A stretch of 64,000 nucleotides of DNA from Candidatus Caldarchaeales archaeon (lineage in GTDB: Archaea; Thermoproteota; Nitrososphaeria_A; Caldarchaeales; Wolframiiraptoraceae). The stretch is from positions 32,001-96,000 of the forward strand of contig JBCNVN010000001.1 in the NCBI GenBank assembly GCA_039630055.1, written 5' to 3'. Both the position numbers and the translations under genes were made by a program. Under the pieces are notes generated by a model that did no database searches, was not told the origin of the DNA, and saw only the letters and a list, made by a program, of their open reading frames with translations. Shown here piece after piece: positions 9,161-22,304 of this stretch. The number at the start of each line of letters is the position of its first letter. Position 1 is the stretch's first letter.

Positions 9161-10246
9161 ATGAGTAGAGACAAGGAGACAAAGATCTTCGAGGTTGATA
9201 CATTAAATATTAACATGGATTATATTAGTGAGGCTGCTGAAGTGATTAGGGATGGAGGCTTGGTTGTCTTCCCCACCGAGACTGTCTATGGGCTTGGAGC
9301 AGATGCGTTGAATCGAGAAGCTGTAAGAAAAGTATACGAGGTTAAGAAGAGACCATTAGATAATCCATTGATAGTACATATATCAAATATGGGTCAACTA
9401 GATAATGTCATATCTAGGATCCATGTAGGAGAAGAAGTCTACAAAATTATGGAGAGGTTCTGGCCTGGTCCTTTAACCCTTATACTTCCAAAATCAAGAG
9501 AATTACCTTATGAGGTGACGGCCGGCCATCAAGTAGTTGCGGTTAGAATGCCTGCCCATCCAGTAGCTTTGAACCTAATAGAATTGAGCAGGACCCCGAT
9601 AGTAGGTCCCAGCGCTAATCCAGCCGGTAGACCATCCCCTACTAGTGGAGAACACGTTAAGAAAGATATGATGGGAAAAGTGGATGTGATAATAGATGCG
9701 GGAGAGACACTATATGGTGTTGAGTCAACGATAATAGACTTGACAAGGGATCCTCCGATGCTTCTTAGACCTGGAGCGATCCCAGTAGAAGAGGTTGAGA
9801 AATATATTCAGAAGAGGGTGGATGTGCCGGATTTTGCTAGAGGACTGGTAAAAGTATCTGAGGCAATATCTCCTGGGATGAAGTATAGACATTATGCACC
9901 TATTACACCTTTAATTGTTATTGAGGCTGGAGATTATTCTAATCTGGAGACCTATTGTAGGAAGATTCAGGAGTATGTTAGAGATTTGAAGAGCTCTGGA
10001 AAGAAGATTGTAATATTGGCCTCGAGAGAGACTAGAGAACTCTATGAAAATATTGATGTACTGGTTTTAGGTTCTAGAAGTAATCTTTTTGAAGTTGCTA
10101 AGAACCTCTTCTCAACCCTGAGGATTATCGATGAGCTTAAAGTAGATTTGGCCGTATCTGAAGGATTTGAAGAGAGAGGGTTAGGATTGACTATAATGAA
10201 TAGGTTACGGAAAGCAAGCGGATACAATATCATAAAGATACCGTGA
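9161..10246 (+). CDS. sua5: L-threonylcarbamoyladenylate synthase Sua5
   Basis: FPTETVYGLGA, KKRPLDNPLIVH, FWPGPLT, PSAN, PGMKYRHYAP, MNRLRKA. Confidence 0.96.
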   Translation: MSRDKETKIFEVDTLNINMDYISEAAEVIRDGGLVVFPTETVYGLGADALNREAVRKVYEVKKRPLDNPLIVHISNMGQLDNVISRIHVGEEVYKIMERFWPGPLTLILPKSRELPYEVTAGHQVVAVRMPAHPVALNLIELSRTPIVGPSANPAGRPSPTSGEHVKKDMMGKVDVIIDAGETLYGVESTIIDLTRDPPMLLRPGAIPVEEVEKYIQKRVDVPDFARGLVKVSEAISPGMKYRHYAPITPLIVIEAGDYSNLETYCRKIQEYVRDLKSSGKKIVILASRETRELYENIDVLVLGSRSNLFEVAKNLFSTLRIIDELKVDLAVSEGFEERGLGLTIMNRLRKASGYNIIKIP

Positions 10247-10477
10247 CTTTCTGAATTATCCATCGTATAGAGTTTAGGGAGTTATCATGGATCATCTTCA
10301 TAAAGTTCTAAGAGGAGATCAGCATCACGTCGTTCTTTGAACACACATACTACATAAACGATTATCAATTATCATGTAGATATGTAAGAGTATGAAGATG
10401 TCAAAGGTTGGAGGAAGCATATATAAATGCTAGGAAATTGAATATAGGAAGATGAAGTTCTTCTACTCTTCTCATTG

Positions 10478-10588
10478 ATGTATGTTATCGCTGTCGCTCC
10501 CAGTAATCCTTTAGTGCCAGTATTCTCAATGATGCTCTTGATTGTAATATTACTGCTGCTCTACTCTATCTACACCATTAGAAGGTGA
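10478..10588 (+). CDS. Putative 36-aa hydrophobic peptide (or tail of a decayed membrane-protein gene)
   Basis: Hand translation MYVIAVAPSNPLVPVFSMMLLIVILLLLYSIYTIRR*; stop overlaps the AGGTGA SD of the next gene. Confidence 0.3.
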   Translation: MYVIAVAPSNPLVPVFSMMLLIVILLLLYSIYTIRR

Positions 10589-10592
10589 TATA

Positions 10593-11696
10593 TTGAATAG
10601 TGAAAACAAATTGTTCTCGAGATCTTCTTTAGAAGATCAACTGAGAGTTTATAGATACGTCATGGAAAAAAAGACTGAGAGTGCTAAAAACCTCGCCCAA
10701 CAGATTCGAGAAAAATTCCATGTGAGTATACACCCTGACACCATAAAGCGTTGGAAAAAGAGGGGTTCTCGTTTTGACTTCTTGATCGATTACCTAGAAA
10801 CTCCAATATTAGAAATATCGTACTTCACCCTCAGAGACGAGGCAATCAAATTACATAACGTATTCGGCTACGTATTGATAAGCAAGATACTTCATATGAA
10901 GTATGGCATTAGAATCAGTCCCCCAACAATAAATGGGTGGTTGCGGGGTAAAAAGCCCAGAACAACTAATCTCTCACCATCTCCCGAACTCGCTGTAGTA
11001 GCTGCTGCCGTTGTAGGAGACGGTTGTATAACTACTAGTAAACATTTGCGTCCCAAACCTTATGTACAAAAAAAGATAGAATTGTCCATGAAAGACATTG
11101 AACCAGTATTGATGGTAAGAGACTGTCTACTTAAAATTTGCAAATATAATTATATAATTAGTGAAAAACAGGGAAGGTATTGGATTGCTTGTCATAGAAA
11201 GGATCTCGTAGATTATCTAAGTAATAGAGACAACATTCTCAATCTATTGCGATCTTTTCCTATAGAATTTATGAGAATGTTATTTGAGTGTGATGGTCAT
11301 GTTTCTGCTAGTATTTCCACAGTAAACGATAAAGGAAAAATTAAAAAAGTCTTTGATGTAAAAATATGTCTAACGAACTCGGACAAAGAACTTTTAGAGG
11401 AGGTTCAAAAACAACTAGAAAAGTTAGGGATTCGTTCAAAGATATATTTATCCACAAAAGCTGGAACCCCACTAATAATGCCCAACAACTCTAGGATTTA
11501 TATAAGGAAGAAAGATATATACAGATTGTCCATACAGGAGAAATTGTCAATAATGAAATTCTCTACAATAAACTTTATTACTAGAAGAAAAAGACAGAAA
11601 CTGGAAAATATAATCAACATTCTCCAGAAATGCTCAGAGACAGAGGCTGTAGATGAATGGATTAAACTTGTAGCTGAATATATGAAGGGCGAATAG
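10593..11696 (+). mobile_element. Free-standing double-motif LAGLIDADG endonuclease with N-terminal HTH repeats
   Basis: ELAVVAAAVVGDG and FMRMLFECDG motifs; TNSDKELL..VQKQLEKLGI; two HTH-like segments (TIKRWKK, TINGWLRG); no intein splicing motifs. Confidence 0.8.
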
Positions 11697-11725
11697 CCCC
11701 CTCCCCTCTCTTTATTTTTATTCTT
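11697..11725 (+). terminator. Pyrimidine/oligo-T tract after the LAGLIDADG gene
   Basis: CCCCCTCCCCTCTCTTTATTTTTATT immediately after the stop, typical of archaeal terminators. Confidence 0.35.
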
Positions 11726-11727
11726 CT

Positions 11728-11784
11728 CTAGGCTAATATAAAATTTTCAAGTCTTGTAATTGGATCTATTACTACTTCTCTCAA
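11728..11784 (-). pseudogene. mvhA: 5' remnant of the [NiFe]-hydrogenase large subunit MvhA
   Basis: TTG 5 nt after the mvhG stop, with GAGGGGTGA SD; translates MREVVIDPITRLE-NFILA*. IDPITRLE is the conserved large-subunit start (normally followed by GH). Confidence 0.85.
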
Positions 11785-11789
11785 TTATC

Positions 11790-12770
11790 TCACCCCTCAA
11801 CCATCTTTATCTTTCCACGTAGCCGTGAGGCGGCTAACGTATATCTATAGAATGTACCCATGAAGTCTGAAAAGTTGTTTAGAGCCTTCTCAATTTCTTC
11901 TTCATTATAGTGGTCTAGGATGCTTGCAAAGTATGATGCTGCCTTACCACCATAGTCTATTACTTCGTCAAGTGGGCCGAAGCATCCTGTACAAGGCATG
12001 GCAGCCTTGACACATAGTGCTCCACATCCTCCACGAGTAACTGGGCCTAAACATGCTAATCCTTGGACTAGAAGACATTTCTCAGGGTCGACGACTATTT
12101 CATGGGGTCTCTTGACCTCCTTTATTAAAACCTTCTCAGGCTTTGTCTCATTTAGAGGACAGTCATAGCATAGGGATCTTTCAGATGCTCCTAGAACAGA
12201 ACCTTTAGCTGGAAGGTTTCCTGATAGAAGAGCCTCGATAGCCTTCCATGTAACTTCGGGGGTTGGAGGGCATCCTGGAATATAGTAATCCACATCTATT
12301 ACTAGGTCTAATGGTAAGAGTCTTGGAAAGAACTCGGGTAGCTTAAGATTTATTCCCTCCTCTAATCTTACATTTGTCATAGGTGTTCTCTTTTCAGAGT
12401 TGCTAATGGTTGGAGCCTCATGATATACATAATTAAATATGTCTTCTTTACTGTATAGGTTGGCTAGACCTGGAACGCCTCCCCAAGATGAACATGCACC
12501 ATAAGCTACAACTATCTTGGACTTTTTCCTTAATAGTTTTACAACTTCTTCATGTTCCTCTAATCTTATCCCACCATTTATGAAGCTGACAGTTATAGAT
12601 TTATCTGGAAGGTTCTCAACATCCTTAACCTTAAAGTCTAGTGCCACCGGCCAGAATACTATATCTACCAAGCTTACTAAGTCTAGGATCTTCTCTGCCA
12701 AGTCTACTACAGATTCTTCACATCCACCACAGCTAGCACACCAGTAGAGAGCAACCTTAGGCTTCTCCAA
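11790..12770 (-). CDS. mvhG: F420-non-reducing (group 3c) hydrogenase small subunit
   Basis: CASCGGC, YGAC...GG, PGCPP, CYDC, CL..QG..CLGP.TRGGC...C......CTGCFG. Confidence 0.92.
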   Translation of the reverse strand: MEKPKVALYWCASCGGCEESVVDLAEKILDLVSLVDIVFWPVALDFKVKDVENLPDKSITVSFINGGIRLEEHEEVVKLLRKKSKIVVAYGACSSWGGVPGLANLYSKEDIFNYVYHEAPTISNSEKRTPMTNVRLEEGINLKLPEFFPRLLPLDLVIDVDYYIPGCPPTPEVTWKAIEALLSGNLPAKGSVLGASERSLCYDCPLNETKPEKVLIKEVKRPHEIVVDPEKCLLVQGLACLGPVTRGGCGALCVKAAMPCTGCFGPLDEVIDYGGKAASYFASILDHYNEEEIEKALNNFSDFMGTFYRYTLAASRLRGKIKMVEG

Positions 12771-13188
12771 CTCTCACCTCACCTTCAACCCTCAAAGGTC
12801 CCAAAGCTTTTATCTCCCTATACATTTCTTGAGCTACTCTAACAAATTTCTCTGCTTCTGAAGCAGATATCCATTCAAGCCTAAACCTCTCCTTCTCTAT
12901 CCCAAAACTCTCAAGCATCTTCTTCAGCAAAGTCATTCTCCTCAATGCTTTATAATTTCCTTCTATATAATGGCAGTCTCCTGGATGGCATCCAGCAACT
13001 AGTACTCCATCAGCACCCCGACTGAAAGCCTCCAAGATAAACTGAGGGTCGACTCTACCTGAACACATAACTTTTATAACTAAAAAGTTTGGAGGATACT
13101 TCATCCTACTCGTTCCAGCTAGGTCAAGCGCAGCATATGAGCACCAGTTACATGCAAAAACGATTATCCTAGGTTCAAAATTCTCCAA
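12757..13188 (-). CDS. mvhD: Hydrogenase delta subunit, [2Fe-2S]
   Basis: FACNWCSY, CSGRVD, GCHPGDCHY, WISASE. Confidence 0.95.
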   Translation of the reverse strand: MENFEPRIIVFACNWCSYAALDLAGTSRMKYPPNFLVIKVMCSGRVDPQFILEAFSRGADGVLVAGCHPGDCHYIEGNYKALRRMTLLKKMLESFGIEKERFRLEWISASEAEKFVRVAQEMYREIKALGPLRVEGEVRVGEA

Positions 13189-13194
13189 AACTGA

Positions 13195-15144
13195 TCACCT
13201 CGCTAAGGCTGCTAAGAGCTGAGCCTTAAGCTGGGTATCTTTAAAGCTGAATTGCTGCATAGCACCACTTGGGCATGCGGCTACACAAACTCCACATCCC
13301 TTACATAGAGAAGCATCAACCTTCGCCGACCTCACCCGGTCTATAACCTCTAAACTTATAGCGGTATATGGGCACACACCTATACATATAGAGCATCCGC
13401 TACAAATACTTTTATTGACTACTGCTATCGTAGGCTCTACTATAACTTCTTCCTTGGATAGGAGTGTTACAGCCTTAGAAGCAGCCGCACTACCTGAAGC
13501 AATACTTTCAATAATGTTTTTAGGTCCTGTAACTGCTCCAGCTAAGTAGACTCCATCTGTAGTTGCCTCAACAGGTCTAAGCTTTAGATGTGCTTCTTTA
13601 AGGAAGCCTTCTGGTCCACATCCAACTTTAAGGATTGTTCTGACCTTATCTATACCTTCTGGAGGCTTCATCCCTACAACTAATACTACCAAGTCTGCAG
13701 GTATAGTCACTTCTTCATTTATCGTTTCTTCAAAGAAGCTTACATATATCTCACCATCAGGTTTAACCGTCACCCTTGGAGATTCTTTAAATCTTGCGAA
13801 TCTTATAAAGTGCTCACCGGCTTTTAAGTATAATTGTTCATCTCCTCTACCATACGTTCTAATATCTTTATGGAGTATGTAGATATCCGTATCCGGATAT
13901 GCTTCTCTGATCATTAATGCATTCTTTATAGTTGAGGAGCAACACATCCTCGAGCAGTGTGAGTAAGCATTAGGGGTTGTGTTTAGTGAGCCTACACACA
14001 TTATGAAGACTATCTTCTTAGGCTTAAACCCATCTACTACCAGTTCTCCATTTGTGGGACCATCTCGGACGAGCAATCTCTCAAGCTGGAACAATGTTGT
14101 GATCCTATTGGATAGCTTATACCCATACTCACCTATAGGAGGTTCATAAGGGTCGTAGCCTGCTGCCACGACTACTGCTCCAACATCTAGGTCTATCTCT
14201 TCAAATCTTTCCTCTAAGTTTATTGCGGCTGTGGGACATACCTCTACGCATTTACCACATCTAGTACAGTTCTGCATATCTATAACGTATAGCTTTGGAT
14301 ACGCATCTTTAAACGGTAGGTATATTGCTTTTCTTCTAGATATTCCAAACTCGTATTCATTCGGAACTTCTACAGGGCATATCTTACTGCACTCATCACA
14401 TAGAATACATCTCTCATTAACATACCTAGGCTTCTTCGCTAGCTTTACCTTGAAGTTTCCAACGGATCCATCTACTCCTATCAACTCTGTATTTACGTAT
14501 ATGTTGATGTTCGGGTCTCCAGCAACCTTCTGGATAAGCTCTCTAGCTATATCAGAGCCTTTCAGTTCTGTATAAGGTAATCTTCCAAGCCTAGCCACTC
14601 TTCCACCAAGAATAGGTGCTCTCTCGACCAAGTGAACTTTGAAACCTTTCCCAGCTAGGTCTTGAGCAGCAGCTAATCCTGAAACACCTCCACCGATGAC
14701 TAGCACGCTTCTATCTACCTTAAACTTTATATCTTCTAAAGGTTCTAGCAGAGATGCTTTAGCTACAGCCATTCTAATAAGGATCTTAACTTTCTCCGTA
14801 GCCCTCTCTTTAGTATCTGAATGTGGCCATGAACATAGTTCCCTTATATTCGCCATCTCTAGAACGTATGGATTTAGCCCAGCTTCAGCTAAGGTCGACC
14901 TAAAAGTATGTTCATGCATTGTTGGAGAACATGCAGCTACGACAACCCTGTTTAAACCATGCTTCTTAACGCTTTCCTTGATCAATTCTTGTCCAGGAGC
15001 TGAGCACATGAATAGGTAATCTCTTACCTCTACAACATTTGGTAGATTCTTAACATAATCAACTACTTCTTTAATGTTTACTACGCCTGCAATATTTGCT
15101 CCGCAGTGGCATACGTATACTCCGATTCTAGGCTCTTCACCCAT
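13195..15144 (-). CDS. hdrA: HdrA-family flavoprotein (QmoB-like, followed by separate MvhD)
   Basis: RIGVYVCHCG, AACSP, NIRELCSW, VIGGGVSG, CSRMCC, internal and C-terminal ferredoxin motifs; lacks the DCxxC segment. Confidence 0.9.
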   Translation of the reverse strand: MGEEPRIGVYVCHCGANIAGVVNIKEVVDYVKNLPNVVEVRDYLFMCSAPGQELIKESVKKHGLNRVVVAACSPTMHEHTFRSTLAEAGLNPYVLEMANIRELCSWPHSDTKERATEKVKILIRMAVAKASLLEPLEDIKFKVDRSVLVIGGGVSGLAAAQDLAGKGFKVHLVERAPILGGRVARLGRLPYTELKGSDIARELIQKVAGDPNINIYVNTELIGVDGSVGNFKVKLAKKPRYVNERCILCDECSKICPVEVPNEYEFGISRRKAIYLPFKDAYPKLYVIDMQNCTRCGKCVEVCPTAAINLEERFEEIDLDVGAVVVAAGYDPYEPPIGEYGYKLSNRITTLFQLERLLVRDGPTNGELVVDGFKPKKIVFIMCVGSLNTTPNAYSHCSRMCCSSTIKNALMIREAYPDTDIYILHKDIRTYGRGDEQLYLKAGEHFIRFARFKESPRVTVKPDGEIYVSFFEETINEEVTIPADLVVLVVGMKPPEGIDKVRTILKVGCGPEGFLKEAHLKLRPVEATTDGVYLAGAVTGPKNIIESIASGSAAASKAVTLLSKEEVIVEPTIAVVNKSICSGCSICIGVCPYTAISLEVIDRVRSAKVDASLCKGCGVCVAACPSGAMQQFSFKDTQLKAQLLAALAR

Positions 15145-15145
15145 G

Positions 15146-16435
15146 CTATACACCTCCAGCAATTATAGATGCTTTGATAGCTGCAGAGTCGGCTTGGACC
15201 ACTGAGTCGGGTATATCTTTAGCTCCAGCAGCTACTCCTACAACATATATCCCTTTTATATTTGTTGAGGTTGGGTCTAGGTAAGGATTCTCTAAACGTA
15301 TGTATCCATCTTCGCTCAATGTTATAGGTAGAGCGGTTGGATAGTTCGGCTTAACCCCTAAAGCTAATACAACCATTTCAGCTCTCATAGTCTTCTTAAT
15401 CCCAGTGAAAGTATCTTCATAAGTAATCATAAGGTCTTTAGTCTTAGGGTCTTCCTCGATCTTCGCAGGCTTACTCCTAACGAAGTTTATCTTAAATTCC
15501 TCTCTAGCTCTGTTGTAGAATTCTTGGTATCCTTTTCCGAACGCTCTCATATCCATGTAGAATATTGTGCACTCAACATCCGGCAAGTGTTCTTTCGCAA
15601 GTATTGCATGTTTAATGGAGGCAGTACAGCAGAAGGCTGAGCAGTTTGGATTTATCTTAACATCTCTGGAACATATGCATTGTATAAATGCAATACTCTT
15701 CGGATGCTTTTTATCCGACCTCCTCACGACCTCTCCACCTGTTGGACCTGTTGCAGACACCAGTCTTTCAAATTCTAAAGATGTGTAAACGTTTGCATAT
15801 TTTCCATAACCGTAGAGTGGCTGTAGCTTGGGATCCATGAGTTCATATCCAGTAGCAATAATAATGGATGCAACGTTAAGCTCTATCGTTTGAGGCTGTT
15901 GCTCAAAGTCTACTGCTCTCGTTGGGCAGACCCTCTCACATACTCTACAAATCCCTTTAGTAAAGTAGAAGCAATAGTCTCTATCTATTGTTGCTTTTAG
16001 AGGGACTGCTTGAGGGAAGAGGAAATATATCGCTCTTCTATTGCTCATCCCTAGATTAAACTCGTCTGGAACTTTAGATGGACACTTAGACATACAAACT
16101 CCGCATCCAATACATTTATCTTCGATAACGTATCTAGGCTTCTTCAGGATCCTTACATTAAAGTCTCCTACTCCTCCTTTAACATCTAATACTTCTGAAT
16201 ACGTTAAGAGCTTTATCATTGGATGTCTTGCAACGGAGACCATCTTAGGCGTAAGTATGCATGAAGAGCAGTCTAATGTTGGAAATGTTTTATCGAGTTG
16301 AGCCATTTTACCACCAATACTCGGAGCCTTCTCGACCAGATACACTGGGATTCCGTGATCACCGAGATCCAAAGCTGCTTGGATACCAGCGATCCCTCCA
16401 CCAATAACCAATACAGGCTTAGGCAAGCGCGCCAC
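15146..16435 (-). CDS. hdrA: Short HdrA-family flavoprotein (QmoA-like core plus inserted ferredoxin)
   Basis: VIGGGIAG, QLDKTFPTLDCSSCILTP, GPTGG, CSAFCC, KDIPDSV; lacks the N-terminal CHCG domain and the C-terminal ferredoxin. Confidence 0.88.
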   Translation of the reverse strand: MARLPKPVLVIGGGIAGIQAALDLGDHGIPVYLVEKAPSIGGKMAQLDKTFPTLDCSSCILTPKMVSVARHPMIKLLTYSEVLDVKGGVGDFNVRILKKPRYVIEDKCIGCGVCMSKCPSKVPDEFNLGMSNRRAIYFLFPQAVPLKATIDRDYCFYFTKGICRVCERVCPTRAVDFEQQPQTIELNVASIIIATGYELMDPKLQPLYGYGKYANVYTSLEFERLVSATGPTGGEVVRRSDKKHPKSIAFIQCICSRDVKINPNCSAFCCTASIKHAILAKEHLPDVECTIFYMDMRAFGKGYQEFYNRAREEFKINFVRSKPAKIEEDPKTKDLMITYEDTFTGIKKTMRAEMVVLALGVKPNYPTALPITLSEDGYIRLENPYLDPTSTNIKGIYVVGVAAGAKDIPDSVVQADSAAIKASIIAGGV

Positions 16436-17549
16436 CTCCTGAAGCTAAGAATCTCTCTTTCAAATTCGAGAAATAGATTGCGAAGGGTCTGTAAGCTAAG
16501 TGGGACCACTTGGTGAAAGGCACTTCAAGTATCAAGAATGGTGCAACCACCATTAAGTGTATCGAGTAGGTTATGTACGTTGCCAGAGGTAGCTCGATGA
16601 GTCTAAAGATTCCGACGAGAATGCCTGTTACCGTTGTGATGAAGAGTAGGATTATAAACATCCAGTCTGTTGGATGAGAGTAGCTCCACATAGGTTGAGA
16701 TCTCTTAATCCTCCCATAGATAGCTACTGAGGAACCGTAGAGCAATGCTATTGTAGAGAATATGCCGAGGATACTTAGAGGATTGACTAGTAGGAACGGC
16801 TCATTCGTTTGAGTAAATCTAAGCAATGGGACGAATAGTATGAAAGCTGCAGCATATCCGTAGACTATGATCAAATGGTTTATCCAGTTGGATGCTCTAC
16901 ATAACCTAAACTTTATCTGTGTAAATAAGTGTACTGGAATAGTCTTAATGAAGTCTTTAATCATGAACCTTAAAGGTATCTTTATCCTTCTCTCATGATC
17001 ATCCCTCATAATATATCTATACATTCTGTAGAGATTTGTTAAAAGCAATGTTGCAAGTATGAATAAGACTGCTAATCCAGCTGTATCAACTATATGTATT
17101 GGTGCAAAAGTTTCAAGCTCGACACTATCTAATACTATTGGTCCATGTAAGAAATAGATTAATAAGCCCACTATCGCTGCTATAGCTGCCGTCGCTAATA
17201 TTTCTACTTTCTTTGAGTAGTATAGTAGTTTCGAGAGTCCAGTCCAGTCATACTTAGTTGTAAGATACCTTCTAAGAGCCATCATAAAGCCTCCCGGATC
17301 AGCATCTCTAGGGCAATATTCACTACACTCTCCACAGTAGTAGCATAGCCATGGTTCTGGGCTTGATAGAAGCCTGTCTTGGACACCCATCAATGCATAA
17401 CGGATTAGTTTTCTCGGATAATTTGCACGTCCTTCACCAGTGACAGGGCATATAGCAGTACACTGACCACAGTTAAAACATTTAGAGAGACCTTTTGCTC
17501 CCAGTCTAATTATTTCTCTTGTTGTTTGAGGCACAACTAGACTTATCAT
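16419..17549 (-). CDS. qmoC: QmoC-like membrane protein: HdrC-type 2x[4Fe-4S] domain fused to a cytochrome b-like TM domain
   Basis: CFNCGQCTAICP and CYYCGECSEYCP, about six TM helices with His residues, C-terminal TKWSHLAYRP. Confidence 0.75.
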   Translation of the reverse strand: MISLVVPQTTREIIRLGAKGLSKCFNCGQCTAICPVTGEGRANYPRKLIRYALMGVQDRLLSSPEPWLCYYCGECSEYCPRDADPGGFMMALRRYLTTKYDWTGLSKLLYYSKKVEILATAAIAAIVGLLIYFLHGPIVLDSVELETFAPIHIVDTAGLAVLFILATLLLTNLYRMYRYIMRDDHERRIKIPLRFMIKDFIKTIPVHLFTQIKFRLCRASNWINHLIIVYGYAAAFILFVPLLRFTQTNEPFLLVNPLSILGIFSTIALLYGSSVAIYGRIKRSQPMWSYSHPTDWMFIILLFITTVTGILVGIFRLIELPLATYITYSIHLMVVAPFLILEVPFTKWSHLAYRPFAIYFSNLKERFLASGGGALA

Positions 17550-17640
17550 ATTTCCGATAGAAGGAAAAAGAAAAAGTTTATTAAGTTTTCTTAAGAAAAA
17601 ATATACTATTACTACTATATATACCTCCTAATCGGTTAAG

Positions 17641-17671
17641 GAATATATTCTAAACTAATGAAGTATATACT
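17641..17671. promoter_or_regulatory. Palindromes GAATATATTC (17641) and AGTATATACT (17662) upstream of the qmoC-like operon
   Basis: Two perfect 10-bp palindromes 21 bp apart; the second is identical to boxes at 24157 and 24181. Confidence 0.45.
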
Positions 17672-18701
17672 AACAGATTCTTGGAACTATCTCACCTATT
17701 GGTGGTTCAAGGATCCTATATCCACCTACACTCGTCCTGACCACTACTAGACTCATATCCTCTCTAGGTCTCACATCGCCTATTATCTGTGCCTCGACAT
17801 ATCCTACAGAATGTATTTGTTCAAGTACCTCTTCAGCTATTTCTCCTTCTACACCTATGACAGCTACTCCTTCAGATGCTAGTGTAAGAGGGTCTAATCC
17901 AAGCATCCCACAATAATTCTTAACAGACTCTCTTATTGGAATCTTCTCTTCATCGATAACTATAGTGGTATTAGAGGCTGAAGCCCAGTTGTTTAGAGTC
18001 ATTGCTAACCCTCCCCTAGTGGGATCACTAGCGGCATGGATGTTTTCACGGTGTCTTCTAGTAATAGGGATCATCAAGTCTGTTAGAGGTTTAACATCAC
18101 TTACAAGCTGAGATTCTTCAAGCATAACCTTCTCTCTAGCAGCATATATCGCTACACCATGCTCAGCTATAGGTCCTGAAACTATTATCTTATCTCCAGG
18201 TCTTAGATTCTTATCGATTATTAATTGTTCTGCAATACCTATACCAGCCATTGTAATGATTATCTTATCCAGCTGCCCTCTAGGCATGACTTTAAAATCT
18301 CCACCTATCAACTTAACATCCATACTCTTAAGTACAGTGAACATCGAATCTAAGATCTTCTGTAAAACTTCTTCTTCAAACCCTTCCTCAACTATTATAG
18401 AATCTAGGACAGCTATCGGCATCCCTCCAAGCATTAGTAGATCGTTTATTGTTCCAGTGGCTGAGAGTTTTCCAATATCTCCCCCTGGAAAGAATATTGG
18501 GCTAACCGTATAGGCATCCGCTGTTATTATAAGATATCTTCCTCCACCCATAGGTATTGCTGCAGCATCATCTGGAAAATCTATCCCTATCCCGCCTTCT
18601 ACAAACTTCATCCAAGATGGCACCCTTCCGAAGATCAAATCTTCAAGTAGCCGGCTCATCTCTCTACCACCAGAGCCATGTGCAAGAGTTATCTTACCCA
18701 T
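17670..18701 (-). CDS. hypE: Hydrogenase maturation carbamoyl dehydratase
   Basis: ITLAHGSGG, FFPGGDIG, DPTRGG, C-terminal PRIC. Confidence 0.95.
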   Translation of the reverse strand: MGKITLAHGSGGREMSRLLEDLIFGRVPSWMKFVEGGIGIDFPDDAAAIPMGGGRYLIITADAYTVSPIFFPGGDIGKLSATGTINDLLMLGGMPIAVLDSIIVEEGFEEEVLQKILDSMFTVLKSMDVKLIGGDFKVMPRGQLDKIIITMAGIGIAEQLIIDKNLRPGDKIIVSGPIAEHGVAIYAAREKVMLEESQLVSDVKPLTDLMIPITRRHRENIHAASDPTRGGLAMTLNNWASASNTTIVIDEEKIPIRESVKNYCGMLGLDPLTLASEGVAVIGVEGEIAEEVLEQIHSVGYVEAQIIGDVRPREDMSLVVVRTSVGGYRILEPPIGEIVPRIC

Positions 18702-18711
18702 CTCCACACAC

Positions 18712-19005
18712 CTATCTCTCCAAACCTCTCCAATACTTAACAATTTTATCCATCTCTTTTAATTCTTCTATGGAGAGTTCACCTTCTTCAACAAGCTTCT
18801 CAGAAATCTCCTTGATATATTTGAAGCTTTCAAGAAAGTCTTCTTCACTAAGCTTTGAGATAACTATTCCTGCATGGACGATTACGTAATCTCCGGGAGA
18901 TAACTCATCTACCGCTGAGAATACTTCTCTCGTAACCCCTCCAAAATCTACTTTAACATTCTTTTCAGATACTTCTACCACCTTCCCATATACTCCCCAA
19001 CACAT
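18712..19005 (-). CDS. hypC: Hydrogenase assembly chaperone
   Basis: N-terminal MC, VDFGGV, GDYVIVHAG; TAATG overlap with the hypD stop. Confidence 0.93.
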   Translation of the reverse strand: MCWGVYGKVVEVSEKNVKVDFGGVTREVFSAVDELSPGDYVIVHAGIVISKLSEEDFLESFKYIKEISEKLVEEGELSIEELKEMDKIVKYWRGLER

Positions 19006-20174
19006 TACCTAACCACCTTTAATCCACGGTATCTAGCCCATATAGAGCATGTTCCCTCTAAGCTCACCATGCATGGTCCATAAGGAGTATCTAGGGTACA
19101 CTTAGTCAAGAAGAGAGGACAGTCTACAGGTTTTATCCTTCCCAAGATTACCTCCCCACATCTACATCCTGCCGATAGGTCGTGGGTCCACTCACTCTCC
19201 GAAGGTTCTTTGAAACCGTAGAGGCTTAATCCATCTAGTTCAAGATACTCTTTTCTCAGCTTATATCCACTTGATGGGATGAACCCTATACCTCTCCAAG
19301 CTGCATCACATACGTCAAAGACTTGACCGATCATCTTTTTCGCAAAAGTATTACCCTCCCAACTTACAGCTCTAGTATACTCGATCACTACCTCCGACCT
19401 ACCCTCATCTATCTGTCTAAGTATCTCCGCTATCGATATGAGGACATCTATCGGCTCGAATCCTGAGACCACTGTCGGAATACCATGCTCTTCAGATAGC
19501 TTCTTCCAAGCTTCTCCCCCTATAATTGTTGATACATGTCCAGGAGCGATGATCCCATCTACTCCACCCACTTTCTTTATAGCATAATCGGCTGCAGGTG
19601 GAGTTAACCTACCTGCAACTATAAAACTGAACCCTTTAGGTATAGAGTTCTTTATGATCATTGAGGCGTAGACTGGATATGTAGTCTCAAAACCTATTGC
19701 TAGAAATACTGATTCTCTCCCATCGCTTCTAGCATCTTTAACAGCATCGAGAAGGCTGTAAACTATCGAGACGTCTCCACCAGCTGACCTAGCCTCCGCA
19801 AGACTCTTAACTCCTTCAGTAATCCTGACTGTGGGAAGCCTATAGGCATCACCGTATGTATAAACTCTTATCCCTTCGAGGGCGAGCTTGATCGCTGCCT
19901 CGATATAGAATGATGGAGTTATGCAGACTGGACAGCCTGGGCCTGCTACCAACTCTATACCTTCAGGTAGAATGCTCCTCAGTCCATAGTGAGTCGTGGC
20001 CCACTCATGGGTTCCACAGAAGTTCATTATCTTTACCCTATCAATCCCATTACGTTTAATATTATTCCATAATGTATCTATAATTTTGACTATCTTTGAG
20101 GATAATTCCCGATTACTTCTAAAGATTTTATCGGTAGCCGTTCTTAGGTCTGACCACTCCAACATTATCAACAT
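19005..20174 (-). CDS. hypD: Hydrogenase formation protein
   Basis: CGTHE, GPGCPVC, GFETT, PGHVS, GPCMVS.EGTC. Confidence 0.95.
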   Translation of the reverse strand: MLIMLEWSDLRTATDKIFRSNRELSSKIVKIIDTLWNNIKRNGIDRVKIMNFCGTHEWATTHYGLRSILPEGIELVAGPGCPVCITPSFYIEAAIKLALEGIRVYTYGDAYRLPTVRITEGVKSLAEARSAGGDVSIVYSLLDAVKDARSDGRESVFLAIGFETTYPVYASMIIKNSIPKGFSFIVAGRLTPPAADYAIKKVGGVDGIIAPGHVSTIIGGEAWKKLSEEHGIPTVVSGFEPIDVLISIAEILRQIDEGRSEVVIEYTRAVSWEGNTFAKKMIGQVFDVCDAAWRGIGFIPSSGYKLRKEYLELDGLSLYGFKEPSESEWTHDLSAGCRCGEVILGRIKPVDCPLFLTKCTLDTPYGPCMVSLEGTCSIWARYRGLKVVR

Positions 20175-20315
20175 GTTTATACAGACTTAAAAACCTAGCA
20201 CTCTTCTAACATTTTTAGTAAGAAGATCGCTTCCGCTAGTCTAGGGATTCAACGTTATCAATCTTCATGATTCGATGTAGGATGTCTTGTATCTGAGGAT
20301 CTTCTGAATTTATCT

Positions 20316-22304
20316 CTATGCGATTGCCTCTACCTTTACTACACGTCTTGGAATTATAGATTCTATCTCACTAAGTATCTGTTTGTCTGTAAACCCTCTC
20401 TGCCTCAGCGTTCTCGCTCCAGATGGACATGATGCTACACAGGTTCCACACCCTTGGCATAATGCTTCTTGAATGAGTGTGGTCTTACTCTGAACATCAT
20501 ATACGGCTGCTCCATATGGGCAAACCGATACACACATCCTACAACCTGAACATGTATTCCTATTAACCTCAGCTATTATCGGCTCTACTTCTATCACACC
20601 CGAGCTTAGTAGCGCTAACGCTTCAGATGCGGCCGCAGCTCCCTGGGCCACAGAATCAGGTATATCTTTAGGCCCTTGACATGCTCCTGCTACGAATACT
20701 CCTGTTGTCACAGTTGAGACGGGGGCTAGCTTTGGATGCTTCTCTAGGAAGAACCCATCTTTATCGAGTGGTACTCTGAATAACTTGGCAAGCTCTCTCG
20801 CATCCTTTCTAGGCTCTATAGCTGTAGCGAGAACCACCATATCTGCCTCAATGTTTTGGACTCTACCGAGTAGAGTATCTTCAAATGTTACTGTCAGCTT
20901 TCCATCTCCATTATCTACAACTTCAGCAGCCTTACCTCTAATGAAGATCACACCTTCTTCTTGAACCTTCCTATAAAATTCTTCATACCCTTTCCCATGT
21001 GCTCTGATATCTATGTATAGATTGTATACGGTAGAGTTTGGTAGTCTTTCTTTAATTAAGTGGGCGAGCTTGATAGCGTACATACAGCAGATTCTTGAGC
21101 AATATATGTGATAATTCTCATCTCTAGATCCAACACAATGTAAGATTACTATCGTTGAAGGAGTTCTACCATCTCTCATAACAATCTTTCCACCTGTTGG
21201 ACCTGATGCACTTGTGAGTCTCTCAACTTCTAGACCTGTATAGACATTTGTGTACCGCCCATATCCATATCTTTTTATTATCGTTGGGTCAAAGAGATCA
21301 TATCCAGTAGCAAGAATAATTGCTCCAACCTCCAGAATTACTTCTTCAGGTTTCTGTTCAAAGTTTATCGCCTTAGTAGGACAGAATCTCTCACAGACTC
21401 TACATATTCCCTTAGTGAAATATAAACAATGCTTTCTATCGATAGTATATTTTCTCGGTACTGCCTGAGGGAATTTTATGTATATTGCTTTCCTAAAGTT
21501 TAATCCCATATTAAATTCATCTGGAACTTTGGATGGGCATTTAGTAGCGCAAACTCCGCATCCTACACACTTGCTCTCATCAACGTATCTAGGCTTCTTG
21601 ACAACCTTGACCTTATAGTTTCCAACATGTCCTGATACTTCTTTTACTTCAGAGTAGGTAAATAAAACGATGTTCGGGTTGGATGCTAAATCAACCATCT
21701 TCGGGGTCAAGATGCATGCTGCACAATCCAATGTTGGGAATGTCTTTTCTAACTGTGCCATCCTACCTCCTATCGATGGTTCTTTCTCCACTAAGTAGAC
21801 TTTCTTACCAGCTTTAGCTATCTTTAAGGCTGTCTCTATACCTGTTATTCCCCCTCCGACGATTAATACAGATTGTTTTACTGGGAGATAGATCTTATTG
21901 AGCGGTTCATGGAATTTAACCCTGTTTACTGCTGCAGAGACTAGAAGCTTAGCTTTTTCTGTAGCTTTATCTACATTGTCTGTAACCCAAGATACTTGCT
22001 CACGGATATTCACCATCTGGAACATGTAAGGATTTAAGCCACCCTCTTCACAGACTCTCTGAAACGTCGCTCCATGCATAGTGGGAGAACAAGAAGCTAC
22101 GACAACATTCGTAAGATTGTAATCCTTGATGTCTTTCTTTATTAGCTCCTGGCCTGGATCAGAACACATATATGGATAGTTTCGTGCTATGACTACTCCA
22201 TCCAGATCTTTAACATACTCTCTTAGTTTCTCAACATCTACCATTGAGGCTATATTAAGACCACAATGGCATATGTATACCCCAATCCTCCTAACCATTA
22301 ACAT
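20316..22304 (-). CDS. hdrA: Heterodisulfide reductase subunit A, full length
   Basis: IGVYICHCG, NIREQVSW, QLEKTFPTLDCAACILTP, CSRICC, GACQGPKDIPD, C-terminal ferredoxin motifs. Confidence 0.93.
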   Translation of the reverse strand: MLMVRRIGVYICHCGLNIASMVDVEKLREYVKDLDGVVIARNYPYMCSDPGQELIKKDIKDYNLTNVVVASCSPTMHGATFQRVCEEGGLNPYMFQMVNIREQVSWVTDNVDKATEKAKLLVSAAVNRVKFHEPLNKIYLPVKQSVLIVGGGITGIETALKIAKAGKKVYLVEKEPSIGGRMAQLEKTFPTLDCAACILTPKMVDLASNPNIVLFTYSEVKEVSGHVGNYKVKVVKKPRYVDESKCVGCGVCATKCPSKVPDEFNMGLNFRKAIYIKFPQAVPRKYTIDRKHCLYFTKGICRVCERFCPTKAINFEQKPEEVILEVGAIILATGYDLFDPTIIKRYGYGRYTNVYTGLEVERLTSASGPTGGKIVMRDGRTPSTIVILHCVGSRDENYHIYCSRICCMYAIKLAHLIKERLPNSTVYNLYIDIRAHGKGYEEFYRKVQEEGVIFIRGKAAEVVDNGDGKLTVTFEDTLLGRVQNIEADMVVLATAIEPRKDARELAKLFRVPLDKDGFFLEKHPKLAPVSTVTTGVFVAGACQGPKDIPDSVAQGAAAASEALALLSSGVIEVEPIIAEVNRNTCSGCRMCVSVCPYGAAVYDVQSKTTLIQEALCQGCGTCVASCPSGARTLRQRGFTDKQILSEIESIIPRRVVKVEAIA

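Follow-up and report, generated by a model that had tools for sequence, protein, structure and literature searches.

Does this locus record the loss of a hydrogenase, or does the contig on which it lies depart from the genome of the organism? The window, by which we mean the whole 64,000-nt stretch analysed here (C1:32001-96000, in an assembly of 80 contigs and 1.54 Mb), contains an Mvh-type operon in which the gene for the large subunit, mvhA, is reduced to a stub. The stub ORF (11728..11784, minus strand) starts with TTG at 11784-11782, five bases after the mvhG stop codon TGA at 11792-11790, and its translation reads MREVVIDPITRLE, followed by NFILA and a TAG stop at 11730-11728. These details match the original prediction, which had described a 13-codon mvhA remnant after the mvhG stop, divergence where GH is due and termination five codons later; the break in mvhA falls between 11746 and 11745. 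With only 18 codons, the stub is too short for scoring with PF00374, and it contains neither RxCGxC nor DPCxxC. Taken at face value, C1 would describe an archaeon that keeps the MvhDG, Hdr and Hyp machinery without the catalytic subunit; either its H2 metabolism would have been lost very recently or a new donor of electrons would be needed.

The genes surrounding the stub are also as they had been listed: mvhD, mvhG, three HdrA-like genes, HdrB-like and HdrC-like genes, HypD, a HypE-like gene and HypF. On the minus strand, mvhG (11790..12770) encodes a hydrogenase small subunit of 326 aa (Pfam Oxidored_q6) with 77% identity to the mvhG beside mvhA in the nearest relatives. It is preceded by mvhD (12757..13188, minus strand; FlpD, 196.6 bits) and by the gene of an hdrA-like flavoprotein (13195..15162, minus strand). 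Further upstream of hdrA lie a shorter HdrA-like gene, a gene for a membrane Fe-S protein, the HypE-like gene and HypD, and beyond HypD the third HdrA-like gene is accompanied by the HdrB-like (CCG) and HdrC-like (Fer4) genes, followed by HypF. In G005, which among the same-genus genomes has the highest identity, the HypE-like gene comes immediately after mvhD (C18 of that genome, L118-L119); the HdrA gene, the second HdrA-like gene and the gene for the membrane Fe-S protein, which are found in the window (13195-17549) and in genomes G002 and G003, do not lie between the two.

The decisive result came from a search of the whole assembly for MvhA, a check that the original prediction had itself suggested. 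When all contigs were searched with the PF00374 profile (E<=1), three matches were obtained, of which two fall in a single frame on contig C21 and cover its N- and C-terminal parts (profile positions 1-79 and 333-508) and the third is on C67. On C1, the contig of the window, the same search gave no match, in keeping with the claim that the window holds no remainder of mvhA. The frame on C21 is an intact mvhA (C21:17453-18916, minus strand) of 487 aa that starts with LREVVIDPITRLEGHGK and scores 123.7 bits on NiFeSe_Hases (PF00374; cut-off 25.8). The metal-binding cysteine pairs of [NiFe] large subunits, RxCGxC near the N-terminus and DPCxxC near the C-terminus, are represented in this sequence by RICGVC (residues 59-64) and DPCHAC (452-457), with a C-terminal extension after DPCHAC. 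Downstream of the gene is a 163-aa ORF that matches the protease-like gene found after mvhA in 14/19 related loci. The placement of this Mvh-type large subunit in group 3c, which we regard as putative, rests on gene context.

The hydrogenase is therefore not lost by the organism, as a complete mvhA is present in the same assembly, and the earlier reading of an operon that had recently lost its catalytic subunit, and with it the use of H2, does not hold. Neither does the expectation of a headless ORF beginning near GH, since the gene on C21 is instead complete and carries the same 13 codons as the stub together with the last 11 codons of mvhG. Given that mvhA is present in its usual place, no loss of H2 metabolism can be read from C1 for this genome.

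How the two contigs relate to each other is seen at their shared end. C21 terminates 38 nt upstream of the mvhA start, and its last 77 nt (C21:18878-18954) are identical to window positions 11746..11822, a stretch made up of the last 11 mvhG codons, the 5-nt spacer and the first 13 mvhA codons. This identity is exact and not one base longer, the longest common stretch being exactly 77 nt. The likeness of the stub to mvhA is thus not a matter of chance, as the same 13 codons continue on C21 as GHGK... into a full-length [NiFe] large subunit. De Bruijn assemblers produce contigs that share exactly k bases at a fork, and k=77 is a common setting. Among the 80 contigs of this assembly we find 27 contig-end overlaps, all of which (27/27) are exactly 77 nt long. 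A second fork vertex of the same kind lies at 10470..10546, which is identical to the first 77 nt of C77, a 512-nt contig that ends in C20:804-880. The two forks enclose a side branch of 1199 nt (10547..11745), and both ends of this bridge sit where another continuation exists.

Our best explanation, in which we place high confidence, is that the stub marks the point where C1 turns out of the mvh operon into a side branch of low depth, in a de Bruijn graph built with k=77, the complete mvhA being on C21. In the dominant haplotype, mvhG would be followed by the complete mvhA and a maturation protease on C21, which ends at the fork, and the operon hdrA-mvhD-mvhG-mvhA-protease would thereby be divided between C1 and C21. 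C1 itself would be a chimeric path in which the Sua5 locus to the left is joined to the mvh locus: the path would enter the side branch through a multi-copy small-ORF repeat and exit at mvhA codon 13/14, with the native continuations probably running from the Sua5 locus to C77 and C20, and from the mvh locus to C21. We infer that C1 is wrong as a path through the genome and conclude that it joins two unlinked loci via a 1.2-kb LAGLIDADG segment. De Bruijn contigs are made from k-mers seen in reads, and it counts against this explanation that the 78-mers of such a contig normally derive from reads, by which some DNA molecules may truly carry the endonuclease flank joined to mvhA codon 13 and C1 may be the true path of a minority strain.

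We compared the window with the contigs, not the reads, of two public runs from one hot-spring study (X1 and X2), which hold 0.72 and 0.65 of the stretch, respectively; in X3, next to none of it is present. A contig of 5544 nt in X1 (depth 10.2) is identical to window positions 11746-14000 (0 differences over 2255 nt) and runs on for 62 nt past the fork, its last 30 nt corresponding to C21:18848-18877, which is mvhA after codon 13. Likewise, a 247-nt contig in X2 (depth 14.2) goes from mvhG into the C21 mvhA and extends 26 nt past the fork. The contigs of both runs thus also counter the reading of a lost gene, although the runs come from one study, possibly of the sample from which the genome was assembled, and do not constitute independent support. 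X2 also holds a second mvhG haplotype, for which seven differences are listed (12036, 12045, 12569, 12582, 12609, 12639 and 12675) and whose depth within 12036-12675 is about 9.5-14.8. This second haplotype indicates that the X2 sample contains at least two strains.

Depth in these runs is available as one figure per contig and gives a direction only, not a strain ratio. In this sense, the endonuclease segment is at about one third of the depth of its flanks (3.1-4.35 against 10-12 in X1; 5.34 against 13-23 in X2), so that the side branch lies below both flanks. At the other fork, the bin 10336-10502 has a depth of 53-57, compared to 12-23 beside it, which places the left fork in a repeat with several copies in the sample. 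At the junction between endonuclease and stub, the cover of run contigs has a gap (about 11540-11745 in X1 and about 11581-11745 in X2) that counts neither way: words of low depth are dropped from such contigs, and the gap at 11745 hence carries no weight. The loose ends behind 10469/10470 in the run contigs have no match anywhere in the assembly.

Gene order in relatives bears on both forks. A search with the C21 MvhA returned 80 loci, of which we examined 19, namely the best 17 together with L051 and L093. The synteny check that had been proposed for relatives bore out the position of mvhA: mvhG is directly upstream of mvhA in 18/19 loci, the 19th starting at mvhA without upstream DNA, and mvhD, mvhG and mvhA occur together in 17/19. 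Within the genus, mvhA is present in all four of the genomes searched (84-90% identity), and in 3/3 same-genus contigs fetched the genes of C21 are collinear into mvhA, mvhG and mvhD. The nearest named loci are those of Ca. Geocrenenecus huangii (84%) and Ca. Terraquivivens yellowstonensis (82%), which belong to genera of the Wolframiiraptoraceae, Caldarchaeales, according to passages of PMC9246946. Neither a homologue of the 367-aa endonuclease-like protein nor one of Sua5 was found in the ~4-kb flanks of the 19 mvh loci.

On the left side, the last gene of the locus encodes a Sua5/TsaC-like protein (9161..10246, plus strand). In G005, the genes of the left part of C1 extend up to Sua5; next come tRNA-Asp and, in the same order as on C20, the genes that this contig carries from position 1939 on, with no mvhG there. 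This order of Sua5 and C20 genes is seen in only one of four same-genus genomes, which counts against our best explanation; G002 carries different genes at that position, and the contigs of G001 and G003 run out 0.3-2.3 kb past Sua5. Neither a tRNA nor any homologue of the cassette genes described below occurs downstream of Sua5 in G002, G003, G001, G020 or G022. Both alternative branches thus rebuild the conserved gene order, whereas the C1 path does not. Mis-assembly, the last of the options listed in the original prediction, is accordingly the one favoured by the 77-nt overlaps, the run contigs and synteny.

The same evidence bears on whether C1 could be the true genome, with mvhA lost by deletion or rearrangement and C21 contributed by a co-binned sister strain. 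In its favour, this is what the deposited contig shows when read as it stands, both runs contain the endonuclease segment, and strain heterogeneity exists. Against this, the X1 contig, which follows the mvhG-hdrA haplotype of the window letter for letter over its 2255 nt, goes on into mvhA, and the gene order of relatives matches the alternative branches rather than C1. We also considered an inversion and rejected it: the left and right parts of C1 are oriented as in their native loci, and only a deletion or a circle junction would give that. Since both halves are in native orientation, a true C1 would entail the loss of everything between C77/C20 and C21, an interval whose ORFs, named from their translations only, we take to include those of ribosomal protein S2, an enolase-like protein, an RNA polymerase subunit N-like protein and a tRNA synthetase-like protein. 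Several of these genes are apparently essential, and the direct join would remove them. Overall, we consider a genuine loss of mvhA very improbable.

With the stub explained as a departure from the dominant path, we turn to the side branch itself, most of which is occupied by a gene for a LAGLIDADG-type protein of 367 aa (10593..11696, plus strand) that is antisense to the mvh operon. The protein matches LAGLIDADG_3 (PF14528) at residues 223-311 with 55 bits (cut-off 22.5), two LAGLIDADG-like motifs (VVGDGCI and FECDGHV) can be recognized in its translation, and its N-terminal region is helix-turn-helix-like, with HTH_33 below the cut-off. Between the stop codon of the gene and the break at 11745/11746 lies a 49-nt spacer (11697..11745). 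This spacer, which occurs in the side branch only, is T-rich after the endonuclease stop and then contains a TATA-like run; a short-word BLAST of the unique flanks of the branch found no second copy of it anywhere in the assembly, and the same type of search found no other copy of the spacer downstream of Sua5. On the far side of the endonuclease gene are a 37-aa small ORF and the Sua5-like gene, with no remainder of a hydrogenase.

We also asked whether the endonuclease gene resides in an intein or intron of mvhA, and put this reading aside: the gene and mvhA are antisense to each other, the stub leads into NFILA and a stop rather than into the Cys or Ser with which an intein would start, and on the far side the contig holds no mvhA remainder.

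The small ORF (10475..10588, plus strand) encodes a hydrophobic peptide of 37 aa and ends in a Shine-Dalgarno-like AAGGTGAT. It belongs to a repeated unit of about 135-220 nt that precedes different downstream genes, with copies at C77:3-119, C19:1400-1534 and the end of C8, and in the run contigs it is about five times as deep as its flanks. The second fork, at 10546/10547, falls inside this multi-copy repeat. A related cassette of about 1.4 kb is found between Sua5 and tRNA-Asp in the present assembly (C77 and C20:804-1760), where it consists of the small ORF, a 94-aa ORF and a gene for a 326-aa LAGLIDADG-like protein. At the same spot in G005 (L108:7852-8216), the cassette is absent and only 125 nt separate Sua5 from the tRNA. 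Such cassettes thus come and go between closely related genomes.

The family of the 367-aa protein is likewise multi-copy and divergent, with matches in 33/61 genomes searched (up to 16 per genome) and about 30% identity among its members. The best homologue, in G016, is 38% identical. At its locus (L124, G016:C30, 1184-5193), the gene is flanked on one side by a full HD-domain gene of 270 aa and on the other by a truncated copy of the 5' part of that gene, and runs antisense to them; the truncated copy comprises 154 codons and shows 74.6% DNA identity over 374 nt. This arrangement of a stub and a full copy is not a rule of the family, as flanking duplicates occur in only one of five testable loci (L005); four more loci had <220 nt on one side. 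Four of the nine family loci fetched are no more than about 220 nt away from where their contig ends. The 367-aa protein had no match in metagenome_contigs or viral_contigs, and a 30-nt stretch at the fork had none in metagenome_contigs.

Within our best explanation, the origin of the side branch is evenly balanced between a strain-variable cassette that, in a minority of genomes, truly lies next to mvhA codon 13 and a technical join. For the former, to which we give not quite an even chance, a minority haplotype would carry a mobile cassette of about 1.4 kb, consisting of the small ORF and the LAGLIDADG gene in antisense, between mvhA codons 13 and 14. The insertion would split the conserved R-x-E-G-H motif, mvhA would resume on the other side of the cassette, and the gene would be interrupted in a subpopulation; no remainder would be seen on C1 if the assembler had changed to the Sua5 locus within the shared small-ORF repeat. 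This refinement needs only one insertion polymorphism and one path switch at a proven multi-copy repeat, and it draws on the polymorphic cassette between Sua5 and tRNA-Asp, on the multi-copy, divergent character of the LAGLIDADG family with its frequent proximity to contig ends, on the HD-domain locus of G016, whose layout is like that of the mvhA locus, and on the second mvhG haplotype with SNPs in X2. Several observations run counter to it. No contig end in the assembly falls within C21, and hence no second junction is seen at mvhA codon 14, and none of the 19 related mvh loci has the endonuclease homologue nearby. Flanking duplicates are confined to the single testable family locus mentioned above, and, with k=31, a simple insertion would not explain why the run contigs stop inside mvhA 62 and 26 nt beyond the fork.

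In the other refinement, which we rate somewhat below an even chance, the junction is present in no cell and the join is purely technical, arising from chimeric reads or from the closing of a gap at a low-coverage tip. The low depth of the endonuclease segment would be expected from such a join, and many forks were left in the assembly, as seen from the number of its contig-end overlaps; moreover, C20 seems to cross a shared 185-nt stretch with two entries and two exits. A chimera would nonetheless have to be frequent enough to outlast error removal, and the segment is attached at both ends.

The reading with a minority cassette can be extended to the population. In a minority of a hot-spring population, the cassette may have homed into mvhA at R-L-E|G-H, such that hydrogenase-proficient and hydrogenase-interrupted cells would coexist as a standing polymorphism; we regard this as rather unlikely. 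In its boldest form, the cassette would bring or leave a duplicate 5' end, by analogy with the G016 homologue beside the HD-domain gene, and mvhA would stay usable. The lead that remains from this locus is that a LAGLIDADG cassette, possibly variable between strains, may sit at a conserved motif of the hydrogenase, and it is a minor one, as is the notion that such cassettes break this and related assemblies. A lesson of wider use is that, in a metagenome-assembled genome, a gene loss internal to a contig should be tested against the ends of the other contigs.

Returning to the preferred reading of a fork between C1 and C21, we can place the reassembled operon and its neighbours among known systems. 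The MvhADG-HdrABC complex of methanogens couples an Mvh-type, group 3c [NiFe] hydrogenase to heterodisulfide reductase. Once C21 is joined, the order hdrA-mvhD-mvhG-mvhA-protease resembles that system and is shared by 17/19 related loci, and the C21 large subunit likewise carries RxCGxC and DPCxxC. Unlike that system, the operon here belongs to a probable member of the Caldarchaeales, has upstream of it another HdrA-like gene and one for a membrane Fe-S protein, and is spread over two contigs with the split at mvhA codon 13. The locus also resembles de Bruijn fork artefacts in its exact k-length overlaps, its branch of lower depth and the restoration of gene order by the alternatives; the misjoin here is deduced from contigs. 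The 367-aa protein is similar to the products of free-standing LAGLIDADG homing endonuclease genes (PF14528) in its domain match and in a distribution that is patchy, multi-copy and variable in presence between close genomes. It differs from them in its N-terminal helix-turn-helix-like extension, and its role as a homing endonuclease is putative; no intron or intein context is seen for the gene.

The third match to PF00374, on C67, is a second [NiFe] large subunit of 398 aa, which is accompanied by a small-subunit-like ORF and many membrane ORFs (C67:11844-14948 and 15967-21220). Passages of PMC9246946 describe a group-4 Mbh-Mrp hydrogenase together with Hyp proteins in the Wolframiiraptoraceae, and the C67 cluster, with its large subunit beside Mrp-like membrane ORFs, looks like the type described there for the family. 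An Mvh-type hydrogenase is not mentioned in those passages, and the word "heterodisulfide" has 0 occurrences in that paper's main text.

Finally, the shared stretch on C20 (C20:804-988) lies in the 326-aa LAGLIDADG-like gene. Its two entries are C20:1-803, which comes from C9, and C77, and its two exits are C20:989 onward and C31; contig C20 may thus itself be a mixed path. On C31, right after a LAGLIDADG-like gene, ARAGORN calls an 88-nt tRNA (C31:763-850) with the anticodon ACA that is labelled as Cys, an odd call that may reflect an intron-bearing or damaged tRNA.
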